A stretch of DNA of 64,000 nucleotides from a virus. Made by a program: the position numbers and the translations under genes. Below the pieces are notes generated by a model. The model was not told the origin of the DNA. It saw only the letters and a program-made list of their open reading frames with translations, and ran no database searches. The stretch lies in UHGV virus genome UHGV-1384413; one strand, 5' to 3'. Of this stretch, positions 6,173 through 53,206 are shown one piece after another. Numbering within the stretch: position 1 is the first letter of the stretch; each line of letters begins with the position of its first letter.

Positions 6173-6418
6173 ATGAAAAGCAATAAAGGTTATAACGGTC
6201 ACAAAAACAAAACTCATTGGAATGTAAGCCTTTGGATTAATAACGATGAATCATTATACTTATACGCTGTAGGCTTAATAAATGAGTGCGGCAATAAAGA
6301 TAAAGCGGCGGATCTAATGTGCTACAGATTAAAACAGGACGGAATCACTCATACACCTGATGGTTTCAAGTATAGTAAAACTGCAATCCGTGCCGCTATG
6401 GTAGGAATGAAACACTAA
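6173..6418 (+). CDS. hypothetical protein (81 aa)
   Basis: ATG with AAGAAGAGG RBS. Confidence 0.55.
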   Translation: MKSNKGYNGHKNKTHWNVSLWINNDESLYLYAVGLINECGNKDKAADLMCYRLKQDGITHTPDGFKYSKTAIRAAMVGMKH

Positions 6419-6492
6419 AAGCACATAGCCGCCTTACCCTGGGGCTGTGGTAGCGGCCCCATGAATAAGGTTACTAACAAAGAATAGAAAAC

Positions 6493-6597
6493 ATGAAACA
6501 GAAATTAATTGATGCGGTAATCCTGGTTATTGCCCTGGGTATTGGCCTGATTGCAACCATGGCTAATATGATCTTGTCTTCCAACGGTATCGGATAA
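6493..6597 (+). CDS. small membrane peptide (34 aa)
   Basis: Short ORF with hydrophobic core; weak RBS. Confidence 0.3.
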   Translation: MKQKLIDAVILVIALGIGLIATMANMILSSNGIG

Positions 6598-6606
6598 GGT
6601 GGGCAA

Positions 6607-6822
6607 ATGATCACCAACAAAACAGGCAAAACAGAATTTTTACGCAACTTGCAGATCGGCAAGCCCGAGATCTGGTATTGCACTAAAACACCACGTGACG
6701 AAATGAAAGACTTCACCGCCACGCTGCAACGGGTAAAGATATCTATCACGCAGAAAAAAGCCTTGATAGTGGTTGAAGGTGAGATCCCTCAAGCCGTTGT
6801 TATAATTGAGCGTACAGCATAG
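6607..6822 (+). CDS. hypothetical protein (71 aa)
   Basis: ORF-track ORF with GGATAAGGTGGG RBS. Confidence 0.45.
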   Translation: MITNKTGKTEFLRNLQIGKPEIWYCTKTPRDEMKDFTATLQRVKISITQKKALIVVEGEIPQAVVIIERTA

Positions 6823-6913
6823 TTTAATTTATACAGATACCCGAAAATTAACCAACAAAGCATAAACAGGCGGTTACCGCCGCCTTAAACGTAGCAGAAA
6901 GAGGATAGACAAC

Positions 6914-7198
6914 ATGAAAAAGATGATCGCAGTGGTTGCCCTGGTTGTTGGACTTAATGCGCCTGTAATGGCTAAAGAGCTGGCAAAAGAGGTTGATCTA
7001 ACGGATATCCATGCCGTCAATCAAATCGGGGTTACTTATCGCTTATGCCTTGCCGCTAAAACTTTTAATGACGGTACAACAGAGTACTACGGATTCGAGG
7101 GTATCCGGTGCGGTGAGCTTGCTCGCGACCTTAAGGAAGATCCAGACCTGGAGGATCTGCCCATCACCGTAAACGGTAAAGCTTACGTAAACCGTTAA
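6914..7198 (+). CDS. secreted protein with N-terminal signal peptide
   Basis: MKKMIAVVALVVGLNAPVMA signal-like N-terminus; AGAAAGAGGA RBS. Confidence 0.6.
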   Translation: MKKMIAVVALVVGLNAPVMAKELAKEVDLTDIHAVNQIGVTYRLCLAAKTFNDGTTEYYGFEGIRCGELARDLKEDPDLEDLPITVNGKAYVNR

Positions 7199-7200
7199 CC

Positions 7201-7335
7201 ATGAGAAAGATGATCATCACCTTGGGGATTGTGGCGGGATTGCTGGCGCTCTTTCCCCTTATGGTTAGGTATGTGCTGATCAGTGTTGTCCTGGTAGTCA
7301 GCGATCTAATGTTATATATTAACTCATTGTTTTAG
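7201..7335 (+). CDS. small membrane peptide (44 aa)
   Basis: Short hydrophobic ORF immediately after upstream stop. Confidence 0.3.
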   Translation: MRKMIITLGIVAGLLALFPLMVRYVLISVVLVVSDLMLYINSLF

Positions 7336-7343
7336 GTGGAATA

Positions 7344-7535
7344 ATGACAGCAGAAGAAGTTAAAAAAGTACTGGCAGTACTACGTTACCATAATCATTGT
7401 AAGGTGAAGAATGATCCTGATTATCTCGATTCATCCCTTGAAGAGGATACACTACAAGCCATAAGTAACATGCAAGAATTGCTAAAGCGCATGACAGAGA
7501 AAAACCGACCGGACTACATAGGCGAAAAAATATAA
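7344..7535 (+). CDS. hypothetical protein (63 aa)
   Basis: ORF-track ORF. Confidence 0.45.
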   Translation: MTAEEVKKVLAVLRYHNHCKVKNDPDYLDSSLEEDTLQAISNMQELLKRMTEKNRPDYIGEKI

Positions 7536-7746
7536 TCCTTATTGACTAGAAAACAGGGCTTGCAATGGTCCTGTTTTTTGTTATACTTATTCCACGGCAG
7601 GCACCTGGCGACGGGGGGAGACAATCACCGGGCCTGCCTGTCATATAAGAACTATAAAAACCGTTGACATCTGCCAGGGGGTGGGGTAACATTTATCTTG
7701 AAGGGGCAAAAGTGCCCACACAACAACCAGAAGAGAGGAAAACATT

Positions 7747-8019
7747 ATGTCAAGCTGGATTAATCAAGAAGTCGAATCACGTTTTAATGCTATCTGGGAT
7801 CTCGTAGAAAAAGAGGACGGAACATCAAGCCCCTACCTCAACAATTTGGAATTCCATTTTGTGGAAGCGATGAACGCAGAACATGATCACGAAGGTGGCG
7901 CGGATGAGTTCGCTAAAGGTTATGGCTTTAACAATGCCAACGAAATGATCGAGTCGGTTGTACTCCAAGCCGAGGAAGATTATCAATTAAAAACGCTTGA
8001 ATTCTGCCGCCGCAAGTAA
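7747..8019 (+). CDS. hypothetical acidic protein (90 aa)
   Basis: ATG with AGAGAGGAAAACATT RBS after TTGACA promoter and hairpin leader. Confidence 0.55.
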   Translation: MSSWINQEVESRFNAIWDLVEKEDGTSSPYLNNLEFHFVEAMNAEHDHEGGADEFAKGYGFNNANEMIESVVLQAEEDYQLKTLEFCRRK

Positions 8020-8079
8020 TAAGATAATGACAAGGGCCGAAAGGCCCACTAATCAGAACCGCACAAAGAGGAAAACATC

Positions 8080-8343
8080 ATGAAACGTCTTGATCAGCTC
8101 AAATTAGTTCAATATATGGCTTATCGTGTTCTTGAAGTACAGAAAGGCAGCAAAAAAGAAGTTTGCGAGAAAGCGTACAAGATCTTTACTCGCAAAAAAG
8201 ACGATTGGATGTTACGCCAGACTAAAAAGGCTGACATCTTGGGGTACCTGGAAGAAGAGATCCGGCTTGAAGAACAAGAAGAGATCCGCCGTAGTGAGGC
8301 AGATTATCAGGCAGCTTGGGAAAACTGGATGAGCAACAAATAA
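8080..8343 (+). CDS. hypothetical protein (87 aa)
   Basis: ATG with AAAGAGGAAAACATC RBS. Confidence 0.55.
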   Translation: MKRLDQLKLVQYMAYRVLEVQKGSKKEVCEKAYKIFTRKKDDWMLRQTKKADILGYLEEEIRLEEQEEIRRSEADYQAAWENWMSNK

Positions 8344-8485
8344 TACAACAAGTTACATGGTCAGGGGCAATAAAGCCCCTTGATCACACAAAAATTATGC
8401 TATCCTTGTTGACAGAGATCGGCAGTTTTGCTATATTCTTTTTGAAGGGCAGTTGTAAGAAAATTAACTAAGAGGTAAAAACACC

Positions 8486-8905
8486 ATGAACATTAAATCT
8501 GATAATCCGGCATATAGCTTTGATAACGCTTTTTGTCACGGTCCGGCGGCGAAAGGATTCGAAATCGATGGTAAACTAATTATTGTCAATGTTGACGGGG
8601 AAGAGGTTGCAGTATATCCGGTGGCAGACGTTAAAAGCCGTCTACAATGCCGCATCGATGTTACCGCCTACCAGCTTGATCCGGTCCGGGTAGTTGCCCT
8701 GGTCCTGGAAGAAGAAATTAAAGCAATGCACCACAGCAACAAGTTTATTGGTGACGCTCAAGATAATATGCAGGTATGCCGCTATAAAGTTAATGAAGTG
8801 CTTAAAGAGTACGGCTATAAGGATTTAATGATCAAGCGTGATGAAAAATTCCGCTACCGTAACGACCTGGCAAATCGGATTTTTGAAATATACGAATCAT
8901 TATAA
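8486..8905 (+). CDS. hypothetical protein (139 aa)
   Basis: ATG with AAGAGGTAAAAACACC RBS; followed by terminator. Confidence 0.6.
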   Translation: MNIKSDNPAYSFDNAFCHGPAAKGFEIDGKLIIVNVDGEEVAVYPVADVKSRLQCRIDVTAYQLDPVRVVALVLEEEIKAMHHSNKFIGDAQDNMQVCRYKVNEVLKEYGYKDLMIKRDEKFRYRNDLANRIFEIYESL

Positions 8906-8924
8906 TTTCTTAACTGAATTATCA

Positions 8925-8950
8925 AGGGGCTTAAAGGCCCCTTTCTTTTT
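8925..8950 (+). terminator. rho-independent terminator
   Basis: GGGGC-TTAAAG-GCCCC hairpin followed by TTTCTTTTT. Confidence 0.7.
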
Positions 8951-11411
8951 GTCTGCTCTTCTCCTACCATAAACGGCCCTACCTGGCAAGTGGAATAATT
9001 GACTAGCCATCAATCCCACACACTGTATAAATATACATGGAAAATAACTATTGCATAATTTTTCATTGTGTGGTAGCAAGGCCATTTTTACCCGTTTTCT
9101 CTCCCAAAATTGCACGTAATGCCGCTATTGCACAAAATTTAACCTGATGCACATCTTCAACATCTTGTCAATAACTAAAAATCTTTATAAGTCATACACT
9201 TACACAACCATAAAGCCGTGTTCTACGTGAAAAATCGAGTATAACTATAGCCGCCAGATCTCAGAATTTACGTACGTTCACCATTCTATAGCCTGCAAAG
9301 TATTTATTCCAACCACAGAATAACGGAATAGTCAATACCTGCATAAAATAATTATTCGTGTAAACTGCATAACATAAATCAGCTCAGGTGTCAACATTTT
9401 TCGTAAGCAGTTCGAAATTGTCACGATAAGTTATTATACACAAAGAAATCTTTAGTCGTCTAATGGTTACTATACATTACTAATCTGACTGGAATCATTA
9501 GATGACTAAGAGAAAGATAAGAAATAATTAATAATGTAATTGTTTTACCTGTAACAATAAGGCAACTATGCAAACGAATGGCATGGCGCGACGGAGTCGC
9601 GACATAATATAAAAGCAGTAACCATCACCCCCGTGATAGTTTTTCTGCAATCTATTACTCAGATCATAGTTGCCTTGTATTTAGTTAATCATGACATAAC
9701 AAGCAAGGCAACTATAGATCTTCTAATAGTTGCCCTGCTTTTATATTATGTCATAGAAACGCCCGAAGGGGTGACCTAGTCACCTGGCATAGCCAGCGAA
9801 AGATTATTATCTTGTTAATTGTTTTCATGCAAACGAATGTCATGGCTTATCATCTATGCGTGAACTATCCAGGCGTAAACAGTCTATGCGGGAACAATCT
9901 ATACGGGAACAGTGAGGCATGCAATAGTAACAACTGTTATTGTATCCGGTGTGTTGAGTATGCCCGGTGTGTCACTATTATGTCACATTATGTCAGACAA
10001 GTTTTTCTCCTCTTTGTCAAGTGCTGCATGAAAAATTTACAAACTGGTATGGTAGCATTTTTGCGGCCCTGTTTACATTCAGAAATGTATGTATAATCCT
10101 TGGTGTGTGGGCGTTTAGACGTCTGGACGGTCAGAAGTCCGCAGGTCAATATCTAATCTATTGGTTGCTAACTATATCCCACACAAATAGTAAGAAATAT
10201 AATTGTTATGTGCGTAAACAGTAACCCATGTTATCAATCCCTGTATGTATCGCCAGTGGTGCGCATAATGGGTATTATGTTAAATTGCCCGTAATGATAA
10301 CTATTCTCACAATGATAGGTATTCTCATTCATCCCCACAAGATAGATTGCAAATGTTGTGCCACTGTGTGAACGGCCTGGTCTATTAATTTGCCTCACTG
10401 CCTCGATATTTGAGAATTATTATAAAAATGAGAAGTATTCCCATTCCGTCCGCCTGGCAGCACTCCTGTAGGACAAGCACAAAATCGGGGCATAACTGAC
10501 CTGTTCAGATATTTCTGGCTGACTCTTCAGGTCTGTGTGGGAAAAGCCAACCTCTCCGGCGGCGGGGTAGGGGTCAATTAAAAAATTTATGCGGTGTATG
10601 AAACCCTCTTCAGGCAAGGTGTGTATTATGGTATGAAACCCTCTTCAGGCAATGATATTTGTGGGTGTGATATTTGCTGGAAAGCCAGATATGACGGGAC
10701 TCCCGGCGGGGCAGGGGTAGTACAGACAGGGAAAATGTGGGGATGTAGTTGGGGAAATTGATCAGACAGGTAGAGTATGGAATATGTTATGAATATGTTA
10801 AATATGGAGGGTGAATATCTGTAGGATTTGTGTGTAAAATCAAAGACTTAAGTGGTGTTGTGGTATTTTCTATAAATAATTCAAGTTTAATAGGTAATAT
10901 TTGTCTCTATCCACTTTGTGTGGTAAACAGATTTAGATGAAATTGGTTTACAAGTGTATACATAATATACAAATTAAAGATACAAGAAACCCCCCTCCCC
11001 CTTCGGCTACCATTCACCTTTTCCTCTGACTGGTACTTAAACACTTATTCAGACTCTTCAGGTTATCACCCATATACTATATGGCAGTGACTGGTGTCCT
11101 CCGGCCCCTCTTTCGTCACCCGTCCGCTTCGCCAAGCTAATGCCATAGCCAAATGTTCGGTTGTTCACCCTGTTCACTCAGGTGTATCTCCATACCCCTT
11201 CAAACCGAAGAGAACAGAAAACCCGAATTACTCGGTAAAAGAAAAGAGAAGAACTTAATTTTATCAAGATAGGCAAGAATGTCAAGGGATGACTGCTCAC
11301 TAAACAAGCAAACAGTCATGTGTGGTAGGTAAGTGATTGTAGTGGTGGAAAATTTAGTTGAAAGATGTGTTATAGTGCTCCCAGCACTTTAGCCGGGCAG
11401 CTAATTGTGTG
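8951..11411. other. 2.4 kb AT-rich non-coding region with dyad and direct repeats
   Basis: No ORF with a credible RBS; palindromes and repeated AGGCAACTAT, ATGTCA and GTATGAAACCCTCTTCAGGCAA motifs. Confidence 0.6.
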
Positions 11412-11627
11412 TCAGTCCAGAGGTTCATCCTCCACTTCACTGAAATCAATGTTCATGGTCTCTTCCCAACCATCGATCTCAGCACAAGAGTGAAGTTCTT
11501 TAGGGTTTACTCCCAAAGCCTCAGCAACAGAGTCTATATTTAACACCTCTGGCAGGTATGATTCATCAAATTCAAGGTAAATCAGGCCACGAGTGTTGTC
11601 AGCCCCACCAAATATTTCTATTTTCAT
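11412..11627 (-). CDS. hypothetical acidic protein (71 aa)
   Basis: ATG with AGAGGAG RBS. Confidence 0.5.
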   Translation of the reverse strand: MKIEIFGGADNTRGLIYLEFDESYLPEVLNIDSVAEALGVNPKELHSCAEIDGWEETMNIDFSEVEDEPLD

Positions 11628-11746
11628 GAAATCTCCTCTGGAAATGAGAGTGTGAACAGGGTTATACGTTCCAATATGATGGAATTATGCACGTTTGCCT
11701 CTTCAGGCCATGCTTTAGCATGATAAACTTATGTGGGCTCGGTGCT

Positions 11747-11959
11747 TCATAGTCTCCCACCTCTGAACTCTTCGTGCTCAGGCATAATAGAGAACCAGAT
11801 ATCTACGATGTCTTCCCACGTTAGGTCATCAGCCTCAGGATCTACCTGGAGCGAAGATGGAGAATCTTCAGAATCGAAGTTTTCCTCTTTCACTGGCTCA
11901 GCCAAGGGACATATGGTCACTCCTTTGGATGTCTCTTCAGATGCATGTGTGTTGATCAT
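11747..11959 (-). CDS. hypothetical acidic protein (70 aa)
   Basis: ORF-track ORF, ATG start. Confidence 0.4.
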   Translation of the reverse strand: MINTHASEETSKGVTICPLAEPVKEENFDSEDSPSSLQVDPEADDLTWEDIVDIWFSIMPEHEEFRGGRL

Positions 11960-52394: not shown

Positions 52395-52469
52395 GCCCTG
52401 TTAGCTTAGTGGATAAAGCAGCGGCCTTCTAAGCCGTTGACACTGGTTCGAGTCCAGTACGGGGTGCCA
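52395..52469 (+). tRNA. tRNA-Arg (anticodon TCT)
   Basis: Manual cloverleaf: acceptor, D, anticodon loop CTTCTAA, T-loop TTCGAGT, CCA encoded. Confidence 0.8.
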
Positions 52470-52473
52470 AATT

Positions 52474-52560
52474 GGGGAGTTATCCCGTAGAGGTAGCGGT
52501 GTAGACTGTAAATCTATTGTCATTGCGACTCGGGTGGTTCGACTCCACCACTCCCCACCA
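52474..52560 (+). tRNA. tRNA-Tyr (anticodon GTA), long variable arm
   Basis: Acceptor GGGGAGT/ACTCCCC, anticodon loop CTGTAAA, T-loop TTCGACT, CCA encoded. Confidence 0.75.
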
Positions 52561-52674
52561 AATTTACATTTTTAAATGCATAAATTATACAGATAATGAC
52601 ATTGATATTTATCGTCGTTTATACTAGTCACTAACTGCTCGAAAATCAGTGTCATTATCAGTGTAATTTATAAA

Positions 52675-52765
52675 GGAGAGTAGGGAGCAATGGTGCTCAA
52701 GCGGTCTTGAAAACCGTCCCATTGAGGACGACTTGATGATGGTTCGATTCCATTACTCTCCGCCA
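52675..52765 (+). tRNA. tRNA-Ser (anticodon TGA), long variable arm
   Basis: Acceptor GGAGAGT/ACTCTCC, anticodon loop CTTGAAA, 20-nt variable arm, CCA encoded. Confidence 0.8.
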
Positions 52766-52863
52766 TATTGTTAACCTTGTAATTAAGCGAAAGCCGGAAG
52801 CAGAACCGGATTATCAAATGTTACAGTCGTCATCGCCGACTAGCAACATGGTTAACATTATTC

Positions 52864-52960
52864 GCTAGGTAAGCCCTTTGGCAAGGGCGAGGATTTTTAA
52901 TCCTGAAAATAGACGAGGTAGTCGTTGAATACATAGGTGGTTCGATTCCATCACCTAGCA
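52864..52960 (+). tRNA. atypical tRNA-like gene (possible anticodon TTT) with about 30-nt variable region
   Basis: Perfect 7-bp acceptor stem, D-arm and T-arm; anticodon stem only 4 bp; no CCA encoded. Confidence 0.45.
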
Positions 52961-52966
52961 CCTTTT

Positions 52967-53042
52967 GCTGATGTAGCACAATTGGCAGTGCAATTGATTT
53001 GTAATCAATAGGTTGCAGGTTCAAGTCCTGCCATCAGCACCA
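52967..53042 (+). tRNA. tRNA-Thr (anticodon TGT)
   Basis: Canonical cloverleaf, anticodon loop TTTGTAA, CCA encoded. Confidence 0.85.
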
Positions 53043-53043
53043 T

Positions 53044-53118
53044 GGCCCTGTAGCTGGAAGGTTCAAGCAAGCGACTCATAATCGCCAGACGGTGGTTCAA
53101 TTCCACCCAGGGCCACCA
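53044..53118 (+). tRNA. tRNA-Met/Ile2 (anticodon CAT)
   Basis: Acceptor GGCCCTG/CAGGGCC, anticodon loop CTCATAA, T-loop TTCAATT, CCA encoded. Confidence 0.75.
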
Positions 53119-53129
53119 AATAATAAATA

Positions 53130-53206
53130 CTCCGCGTAGCTCAGCTTGGTAGAGCGCCTGATTTGGGATCAGGAGGTCGAGTGTTCGAATCACTCCGTGG
53201 AGACCA
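53130..53206 (+). tRNA. tRNA-Pro (anticodon TGG)
   Basis: D-arm TAGCTCAGCTTGGTAGAGC, anticodon loop TTTGGGA, T-loop TTCGAAT, CCA encoded. Confidence 0.8.

Follow-up and report, generated by a model that had tools for sequence, protein, structure and literature searches.

A window of 64,000 nucleotides (nt) from the virus genome UHGV-1384413 contains, at positions 8951-11411, a region of about 2.4 kb in which an initial annotation found no open reading frame with a credible ribosome-binding site. The bordering genes end at 8905 (+ strand, 139 amino acids, aa) and 11412 (- strand, 71 aa). The region was originally described as AT-rich, dense in palindromes and direct repeats and situated between convergent gene blocks, and the functions suggested for it included a second origin, a signal related to DNA injection or packaging, a binding platform for proteins and a noncoding RNA locus. 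The analysis described here indicates that it very probably represents the physical genome termini, i.e., the concatemer junction, of a phage whose packaged DNA is of unit length and has short exact direct terminal repeats.

Comparison of the region (8906-11411) with GenBank matched 122 phage records at 87-95% identity, approximately 100 of them over the full length, and the taxonomy of the matched records was Vequintavirus wherever checked. By this similarity, the source phage is an rV5-like myovirus (Vequintavirus, ~136 kb). The counterpart of the region in rV5 lies at ~104,014-106,617, between genes 163 and 164, where the rV5 genome paper shows a grey box labelled "non-coding ... contained no ORFs" (PMC3606486). 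Its authors expected bidirectional terminators in this box and found none, and their search for an origin by skew analysis located a change at 104,425-105,475, coinciding with the switch in transcription direction (PMC3606486). The large terminase (TerL) of rV5 is a Terminase_6 protein resembling that of Pseudomonas phage KPP10 (supplement of PMC3606486). About 19 GenBank MG0656xx records named 'Campylobacter phage' (UNVERIFIED and unannotated; e.g., L014 and L015) are also vequintaviruses, 88-94% identical here, which suggests that this set includes mislabelled or contaminating phages.

The noncoding character of the region was upheld, as it contains no conserved open reading frame (ORF) and is left without a gene in the GenBank annotations of most close relatives. 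ORFs of at least 30 aa in variable sequence are intact in just 0-12 of 17 relatives, while the few that are intact in 16-17 relatives all fall within invariant sequence, where the intactness test is uninformative. Small protein genes were rejected because the ORFs are unconserved where the sequence varies, and the ORF at 11094-11258 was rejected as a gene on reading the alignment, in which its few substitutions lack third-position bias. A scan for tRNA and tmRNA genes found none in the region, no similarity to it was detected in 5,426 Escherichia coli genomes, and blastn returned no homologues outside Vequintavirus, with short motifs alone being common to A73, phAPEC8, and KPP-1. The repeats and palindromes originally listed are all present, their coordinates being exact or displaced by 1-2 nt, although an 18-bp inverted repeat, 20-nt direct repeats, three 17-mers and a highly uneven conservation profile had been missed.

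Direct terminal repeat and probable genome ends

Evidence on the position of the termini comes from the close relatives EdH4 and HdK5, whose ends were set by abrupt read ends and whose terminal redundancy was given as 458 bp (Korf et al., 2019). The GenBank records of both phages are linearised where the reads end abruptly, and both ends of both records were fetched. In each record, the first and last 459 bp form an exact direct repeat, which matches positions 9996-10454 of the window without gaps at 95.6% identity and defines the direct terminal repeat (DTR). Other GenBank records also open or close inside the region, always at one of two recurring positions: the first nucleotide of Pr121LW is 9996 and ECP2303 is cut at 9995|9996, while bov10K2 and bov22_2 start at 10454. 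The DTR is single-copy in the 64-kb window (its first 35 nt were found once), as expected for a circularised assembly, and the region is collinear in ~100 single-copy records. The position and length of the repeat and its two boundary nucleotides have thus been shown in close relatives, and from the 95.6% identity we infer by homology that this phage possesses a terminal repeat of its own, which is present once in the circularised window and would be present twice in virion DNA.

The region consists of three parts, the terminal repeat (9996-10454) lying between the unique sequence of the right end (8906-9995) and that of the left end (10455-11411). Because the genome termini and the DTR lie inside the region, the 'convergent' blocks are two terminal blocks, each transcribed outward; their convergence holds in the circularised representation, while the blocks are actually the two ends of a linear genome. 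The packaging-related role originally entertained for the region is likewise supported by the termini and 459-bp DTR that it contains. Two records, KP869102.1 (O157 typing phage 4) and ON286975.1 (I29), have two copies of the 71-aa gene and/or of the block at 10975-11345, and the record of O157 typing phage 4 is ~4 kb longer than its relatives; these copies are probably assembly duplications across the terminus.

The boundaries of the repeat are also apparent in the pattern of sequence conservation. The region was aligned with 17 relatives and nucleotide diversity was computed along the alignment. Overall conservation is similar to that of the flanking genes, but it is very uneven. Positions 9551-9755 are near-invariant (nucleotide diversity 0.012) and missing from one phage, and positions 10975-11345 are similarly near-invariant (0.006-0.03, vs. 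0.03-0.10 in neighbouring genes), whereas positions 9756-9995 are hypervariable and indel-rich (0.16-0.27). Positions 8951-9550 are moderately conserved (0.05-0.13), like the flanking genes. The switch from hypervariable to near-invariant sequence falls exactly at 9996, reading ...TGTCA|GACAAGTTTTTCTCC... in 18 of 18 phages, and beyond the right boundary, ...CGTCCGCC|TGGCAGCAC..., there is likewise a zone of variable indels. Comparison across related genomes, which had been proposed as a check, thereby established that the region, though unevenly conserved, is not junk DNA.

Termini determined independently in a second genus of the subfamily Vequintavirinae lead to the same boundaries. In Klebsiella phage KPP-1 (Mydovirus), a 514-bp DTR at 116,316-116,829 was identified by twofold coverage and PhageTerm, with packaging of the T7 type (PMC9862379). 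This DTR sits in a 1.8-kb gene-poor zone between convergent small-gene blocks. When KPP-1 is reverse-complemented, both of its published boundaries match those of the window to the nucleotide; tblastn with the flanking proteins gave no match in KPP-1, and the orientation was settled by the boundary motifs. The left motif common to KPP-1 and the window, CTCC(T)TTGTCAAG-N11-AAATTTACA (also written CTCC(T)TTGTCAAG-N11-AAATTTACAAA), lies ~10-20 nt inside the boundary, the right motif, GTCCG(C/T)C|T(G/A)GCA, extends across the boundary, and a central island, GTGCGYATAAYGKGTWTTATGTTAAAT, is also common to the two DTRs. A scan of IMG/VR gave 24 hits to the left motif, and the right motif was found as well in six contigs only; one of these is 14.8 kb long, and the other five are Vequintavirinae-sized or truncated. 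The two motifs are separated by a constant offset, which is 436 nt in the Vequintavirus type and 491 nt in the Mydovirus type. These comparisons have shown that both boundaries and their local motifs are conserved across genera.

In genomes of Phapecoctavirus, which belongs to a different subfamily, a gap of 1.5 kb without genes comes after the homologue of the 139-aa gene, and the exact terminal repeat of the Mt1B1_P17 record (328 bp) falls within this gap. A distant relative in IMG/VR (L003, a 140.6-kb contig) has a 3.5-kb gene-free gap (6418-9965) in the same syntenic place, and resembles the window in short patches only, with 70-76% identity at 9145-9254, 10397-10455, and 10633-10731.

Elements flanking and within the repeat

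The right-end unique sequence contains an AT-rich spacer (8951-9550; 34.5% GC), and the AT-richness originally attributed to the whole region is clear in this spacer only, the overall bias being mild (39.7% GC in the region vs. 42.5% in the window). The spacer is followed by a palindrome cassette (9568-9846) located between 20-nt direct repeats, ATGCAAACGAATG(G/T)CATGGC, at 9568-9587 and 9827-9846, both copies of which are retained by the window and by 16 of 17 relatives. In phage FV3 (L011 3618-3640) there is one 20-nt copy and a precise 259-nt deletion of the cassette between the direct repeats. The cassette contains a small palindrome, CGCGACGGAGTCGCG (CGCGAC-GGA-GTCGCG; 9587-9601), which is invariant in relatives apart from the FV3 deletion. 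It also contains a multibranched 152-nt palindrome (9601-9752), whose 18-bp perfect outer stem is formed by GACATAATATAAAAGCAG and CTGCTTTTATATTATGTC (9601-9618 and 9735-9752) and encloses a short hairpin (9620-9641) and a long hairpin made of ATAGTTGCC and GGCAACTAT repeats. The fold z-score of the 152-nt palindrome is -10.1 as DNA and -9.1 and -7.4 as RNA of the two strands. The motif AAGGCAACTAT occurs four times in alternating orientation, at 9559(+), 9666(-), 9705(+), and 9726(-), and its seven matches in the window compare with 1.4 expected, no shuffle attaining seven. ATTATGTCA is found at 9745, 9977, and 9987, and in the inverted orientation at 9601 and 9692.

The cassette palindrome is situated 244 nt upstream of the right-end copy of the repeat (boundary 9996), and palindromes are similarly placed in other phages. 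The phAPEC8 counterpart lies 202 nt to the left of its repeat (z -7.3), and that of KPP-1 is 309 nt from the repeat, on the same side once oriented, with a 21-bp perfect stem (z -11.3), such that the palindromes of the window, phAPEC8, and KPP-1 are all 200-310 nt from the repeat and have long perfect or near-perfect outer stems. Multibranched palindromes are also present in A73 (z -4.5) and in L003, where a 17-bp perfect inverted repeat starts with GACATAAT. The outer stems of the window, L003, and A73 have GACA... / ...TGTC tips in common and differ in their interiors, where both arms change together with full Watson-Crick compensation and no wobble pairs. Compensated changes of this kind, lacking wobble pairs, suggest that selection acts at the DNA level, on a hairpin or cruciform, or else on the two strands alike.

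The remainder of the right-end unique sequence is made up of variable elements. A second small palindrome, GGTGACCTAGTCACC (GGTGAC-CTA-GTCACC; 9770-9784), lies in a segment that is variably present, positions 9755-9800 being missing from several relatives. In an IMG/VR vequintavirus (L004 9319-9362), 44 nt including GGTGACCTAGTCACC are 100% identical to 9760-9803, inverted and displaced by ~2 kb, which suggests that the GGTGACCTAGTCACC segment may move or invert. Beyond it lies an array of 15-nt repeats on the + strand (9852-9913; consensus ~nnnnGCGTGAACAGT), which is hypervariable in copy number and sequence, and across 18 phages the distance between 9846 and the start of the repeat varies between 113 and 226 nt. 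A second + strand array, of 10-11-nt YATTRTGTCA repeats (9970-9995), ends exactly at the left boundary of the DTR. Related phages contain 2-5 copies of this unit, all ending ...TGTCA|GACAAG, and the ATTATGTC motif of this boundary array is also the tip of the palindrome outer stem.

Two types of predicted element occur on the + strand of the repeat itself. The island GTGCGYATAAYGKGTWTTATGTTAAAT, which is conserved between the window and KPP-1 and of which A73 contains an exact 14-mer, includes a promoter-like element, TCGCCA-17-TATTAT (10250-10278). Three 17-mers, AATGA(T/G)A-N4-TATTC(T/C)CA, begin at 10293, 10311, and 10427 (spanning 10293-10443); their half-sites are conserved and their centres are variable, so they are probably protein-binding sites. 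Related TGATAA-N3-TTATCA palindromes are found in or beside the DTRs of phAPEC8, Mt1B1_P17, and KPP-1. The repeat arrays and the conserved half-sites of the 17-mers resemble protein sites, making the originally suggested protein-binding platform compatible with the sequence. Matches of the 17-mers to the Fur box reach 11-12 of 14 positions (7-1-7 motif, TGATAATnATTATCA) and 14 of 19 (19-bp box), with comparable matches elsewhere in the window, and the 7-1-7 motif is matched at 13 of 14 positions near the repeats of phAPEC8 and KPP-1. Fur-box-like palindromes cluster at the repeats of Vequintavirus, Phapecoctavirus, and Mydovirus (L006 5727, 6483, 6662; L030 4216-4960). In the window, the resemblance to Fur boxes is weak, and suggestive rather than specific, the copies being not clearly above background.

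The left-end unique sequence starts with a stretch that is G-rich on the + strand (10455-10974; GC skew +0.33), in which an indel-variable GCAGCACTCCWGTAG zone directly follows the right boundary of the DTR. This stretch contains a degenerate duplication of ~145 nt comprising CTCTTCAGG (three times), a 22-nt direct repeat, and CGGCGGGGYAGGGGT. The 22-nt repeat is perfect (10596-10617 and 10631-10652) and is flanked by CGGCGGGG(T/C)AGGGGT at 10560 and 10704, and a T4-late-promoter-like TATAAATA is located at 10871. Within 1.2 kb of noncoding sequence, the + strand has five copies of CTCTTCAGG, at 10523, 10606, 10641, 11054, and 11699, against 0.45 expected in the whole window. It was rejected as a genome-wide motif, since the other four copies in the window lie within genes and encode Pro-Glu-Glu (- strand). 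Enrichment of TGTGTGG was dropped because it partly reflects terminator and ribosome-binding-site context in intergenic regions, and TCACCC was not enriched.

Next to this stretch lies the near-invariant block of 370 nt (10975-11345; diversity 0.006-0.03), C-rich on the + strand, which is 96-98.6% identical to the window in 119 records, none of them outside Vequintavirus. The block is a candidate for a left-end recognition or processing signal. It contains a predicted orphan promoter of the sigma-70 type on the - strand, TTGACA-16-TGnTAAAAT (11285->11258), conserved and with 11 of 12 matches, which points to the left genome end and has no ORF downstream, as well as a terminator-like hairpin followed by a T-run on the same strand (CCGAGTAATTCGG; 11213-11235) that is invariant in relatives and probably ends the - strand (left-terminal) gene block. 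Just downstream of the 71-aa gene, a 13-bp hairpin (11289-11319) has three G-U pairs on the - strand and A-C mismatches on the + strand, which suggests an RNA-level 3'-end hairpin of the - strand operon.

The block and its promoter could speak for a noncoding RNA locus, transcribed from orphan promoters on the - strand from ~11251 or on the + strand from ~10285 or from TATAAATA at 10871, with the block itself being the RNA. Near-invariance over 370 nt without a conserved ORF signal, a strong conserved promoter without a downstream gene and the restriction of G-U pairs in the 11289-11319 hairpin to the - strand would all fit such a locus. Nevertheless, a scan with the Rfam 15 covariance models found no match at E<=1 on either strand of 8500-11900, and neither 10455-10975 (z +1.3, both strands) nor 10975-11345 (z +1.2 and -1.15) folds better than its shuffles (z +1.2 to +1.4 and -1.15 over the two segments). 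Variation is too low for a covariation test, the sole strongly structured element is a perfect palindrome that is equally stable on both strands, as is typical of DNA-level selection, and a terminator-like hairpin follows the - strand promoter after ~20 nt. The noncoding RNA reading of the initial annotation is consequently disfavoured, and we consider it quite improbable. A hammerhead-like reading of CUGAAGAG (- strand) was also rejected, as it has no stem II/GAAA context and no Rfam hit.

A replication origin, instead of or besides the terminus, would assign a different function to the same elements, with transcription or an initiator opening the DNA. The tandem arrays are iteron-like, the spacer at 34.5% GC could serve as the site of opening, the palindrome is strong, the orphan promoter at 11285->11258 and the promoter-like island in the DTR could supply transcripts, and the skew change of rV5 is located here (PMC3606486). 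That skew change, however, coincides with the switch in transcription direction and its sign is that of a terminus rather than an origin. Hypervariability such as that of the iteron-like array, which affects its sequence as well as its copy number, is unusual for initiator sites; the neighbouring genes include no initiator, and the positions of all the features fit the DTR boundaries equally well. We regard an origin as unlikely.

The hairpins with T-runs raise the further question of whether the region is a mere transcription stop zone, in which the palindromes are bidirectional terminators and the remainder is unconstrained spacer. An intrinsic terminator with an 8-bp G+C-rich hairpin and a T-run (8924-8943, + strand) closes the + strand (right-terminal) block, and this element is among the annotated terminators of Murica, EdH4, and phAPEC8. 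The inner hairpin of the cassette (9620-9641) scored as terminator-like on the - strand, with a T-run after the stem on the + strand too, and its homologue in phAPEC8 also scores as a terminator. A further terminator-like hairpin lies on the - strand at 11213-11235, and bidirectional terminators were what the rV5 authors had expected of the box (PMC3606486). Unconstrained spacer, on the other hand, would not match or exceed the conservation of the flanking genes, as occurs in 10975-11345 (0.006-0.03) and 9600-9700 (0.012), nor would it be expected to contain cross-genus motifs at fixed spacing, and terminal repeats in GenBank records would be left unexplained. A stop zone and nothing else is therefore scarcely credible as an account of the region.

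Outside the region, ARAGORN reported a 99-nt 'tRNA-???' with a four-base anticodon (atcc) at 52864-52962, within a cluster (52395-53206) that otherwise contains Arg, Tyr, Ser, Thr, Met, and Pro tRNAs; candidates for it are a pseudo-tRNA, a tRNA with an intron and a tRNA resembling a frameshift suppressor.

Proposed end processing and comparison with known systems

In the arrangement that we propose, the virion chromosome would start at 9996 and run rightward via 10454, through the - strand block, round the map to the + strand block and through 8906-9995, and its right end would be a second copy of 9996-10454. Replication would generate concatemers with one copy of the repeat per junction, which terminase would cut in a sequence-specific manner at TGTCA|GACAAG (9995|9996) and GTCCGCC|TGGCA (10454|10455), and the repeat would be duplicated as the DNA is packaged, as happens in T7 and T3. 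The two arrays of 15-nt and 10-nt units, together with the 17-mers and the 10975-11345 block, may serve as cis-acting sites for terminase or end-binding proteins. The palindrome at 9601-9752 may form a DNA hairpin or cruciform for end processing and repeat duplication, or might alternatively act as a bidirectional transcription stop that insulates the genome end.

Several observations weigh against this interpretation. The termini have been carried over from relatives with 92-96% identity in the region, and the roles of the arrays, the 17-mers, the 10975-11345 block, and the palindrome are ones that we infer from what is known of phages with short repeats. No single cut motif for terminase stands out, as the two boundary sequences are unlike each other, and the Phapecoctavirus boundaries have no motif in common with those of the window and KPP-1. 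FV3 is viable without the cassette, which would therefore be dispensable, unless the FV3 assembly collapsed. Furthermore, the rV5 genome was called circularly permuted (PMC3606486). Two PhageTerm reports on vequintaviruses (the bov phages and BpE1AUH) also gave 'circular permutated' or 'headful'. PhageTerm can miss termini when libraries are transposase-based.

Circular permutation and these reports would be accommodated if the region were instead the headful (pac) start of a permuted genome and the repeats of EdH4 and HdK5 were assembly artefacts. The ends given by Korf et al. nonetheless rest on abrupt read ends, and two laboratories using different methods on different genera obtained boundaries that agree to the nucleotide, with conserved motifs at fixed spacing. 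Moreover, the conservation profile changes exactly at 9996, and a headful series would not yield two sharp boundaries 459 bp apart. Headful packaging thus appears very unlikely, and fixed termini with a short DTR are the preferred interpretation.

A broader and more tentative proposal, which we think unlikely, is that large DTR myoviruses (Vequintavirinae and Stephanstirmvirinae) possess a cis-acting module for end processing that has not been described before, composed of a multibranched palindrome 200-310 nt upstream of the right-end repeat, boundary arrays that have the ATTATGTC motif in common with the palindrome tip, operator-like 17-mers within the repeat and the near-invariant 370-nt left-end block. 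In such a module the palindrome might extrude as a hairpin and so prime duplication of the repeat; alternatively, the repeat might carry a promoter under the control of a host factor (Fur-like), firing only from the left end after injection.

Fixed termini would explain the 'non-coding' box of the rV5 type genome, and would imply that these phages, which are in wide use for therapy and biocontrol, have fixed rather than permuted ends, with a terminal repeat of 459 bp. About 120 GenBank records could then be opened and oriented consistently at window position 9996. The distinction between headful and site-specific packaging is one on which assessment of transduction risk depends, and the junction must be kept when these genomes are rebooted or edited. 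The cross-genus boundary motifs and the palindrome cassette also offer concrete targets for studying repeat duplication in large myoviruses, a process that for short repeats is only partly solved even in T7.

The terminal repeat has been known from one sentence on two relatives, and has never been dissected or tied to the rV5 'non-coding' box. The DTR of KPP-1 and the redundancy of EdH4 and HdK5 are homologous to that of the window, with coinciding boundaries and common boundary motifs, and in each case the repeat lies in a gene-poor zone between outward-transcribed small-gene blocks. The reports on these phages gave the length and position of the repeat only, with nothing on the arrays, palindrome cassette, invariant block or rV5 box.

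In T7-like phages, the greatest variability and arrays of 10-22-bp repeats adjoin the terminal repeat, which must be duplicated in packaging, and a hairpin intermediate has been described (PMC5000459, PMC5923468, PMC4281155). As proposed for the window, T7 and T3 have a noncoding exact repeat (160-230 bp) at both ends with one copy at the junction, sequence-specific cuts at both boundaries, repeat duplication and variable short arrays flanking the repeat. T7 also has orphan promoters near its ends and a hairpin intermediate next to the junction. In contrast to T7 and T3, the window derives from a 136-kb myovirus without a phage RNA polymerase, its repeat is longer (459 bp), its noncoding flanks are much larger (~1 kb on each side), its terminal genes are directed outward, whereas those at the left end of T7 and T3 lead inward, and there is no sequence similarity.

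Phage T5 differs from the window in that its repeat is ~10 kb long and contains genes, two-step DNA transfer and nicks are its hallmarks, and the two have no sequence similarity. Nevertheless, the terminal repeat of T5 contains a noncoding, repeat-rich injection-stop region that is kilobase-scale, gene-free and close to the genome end, where, as in the window, direct and inverted repeats and palindromes lie beside outward-transcribed early genes.

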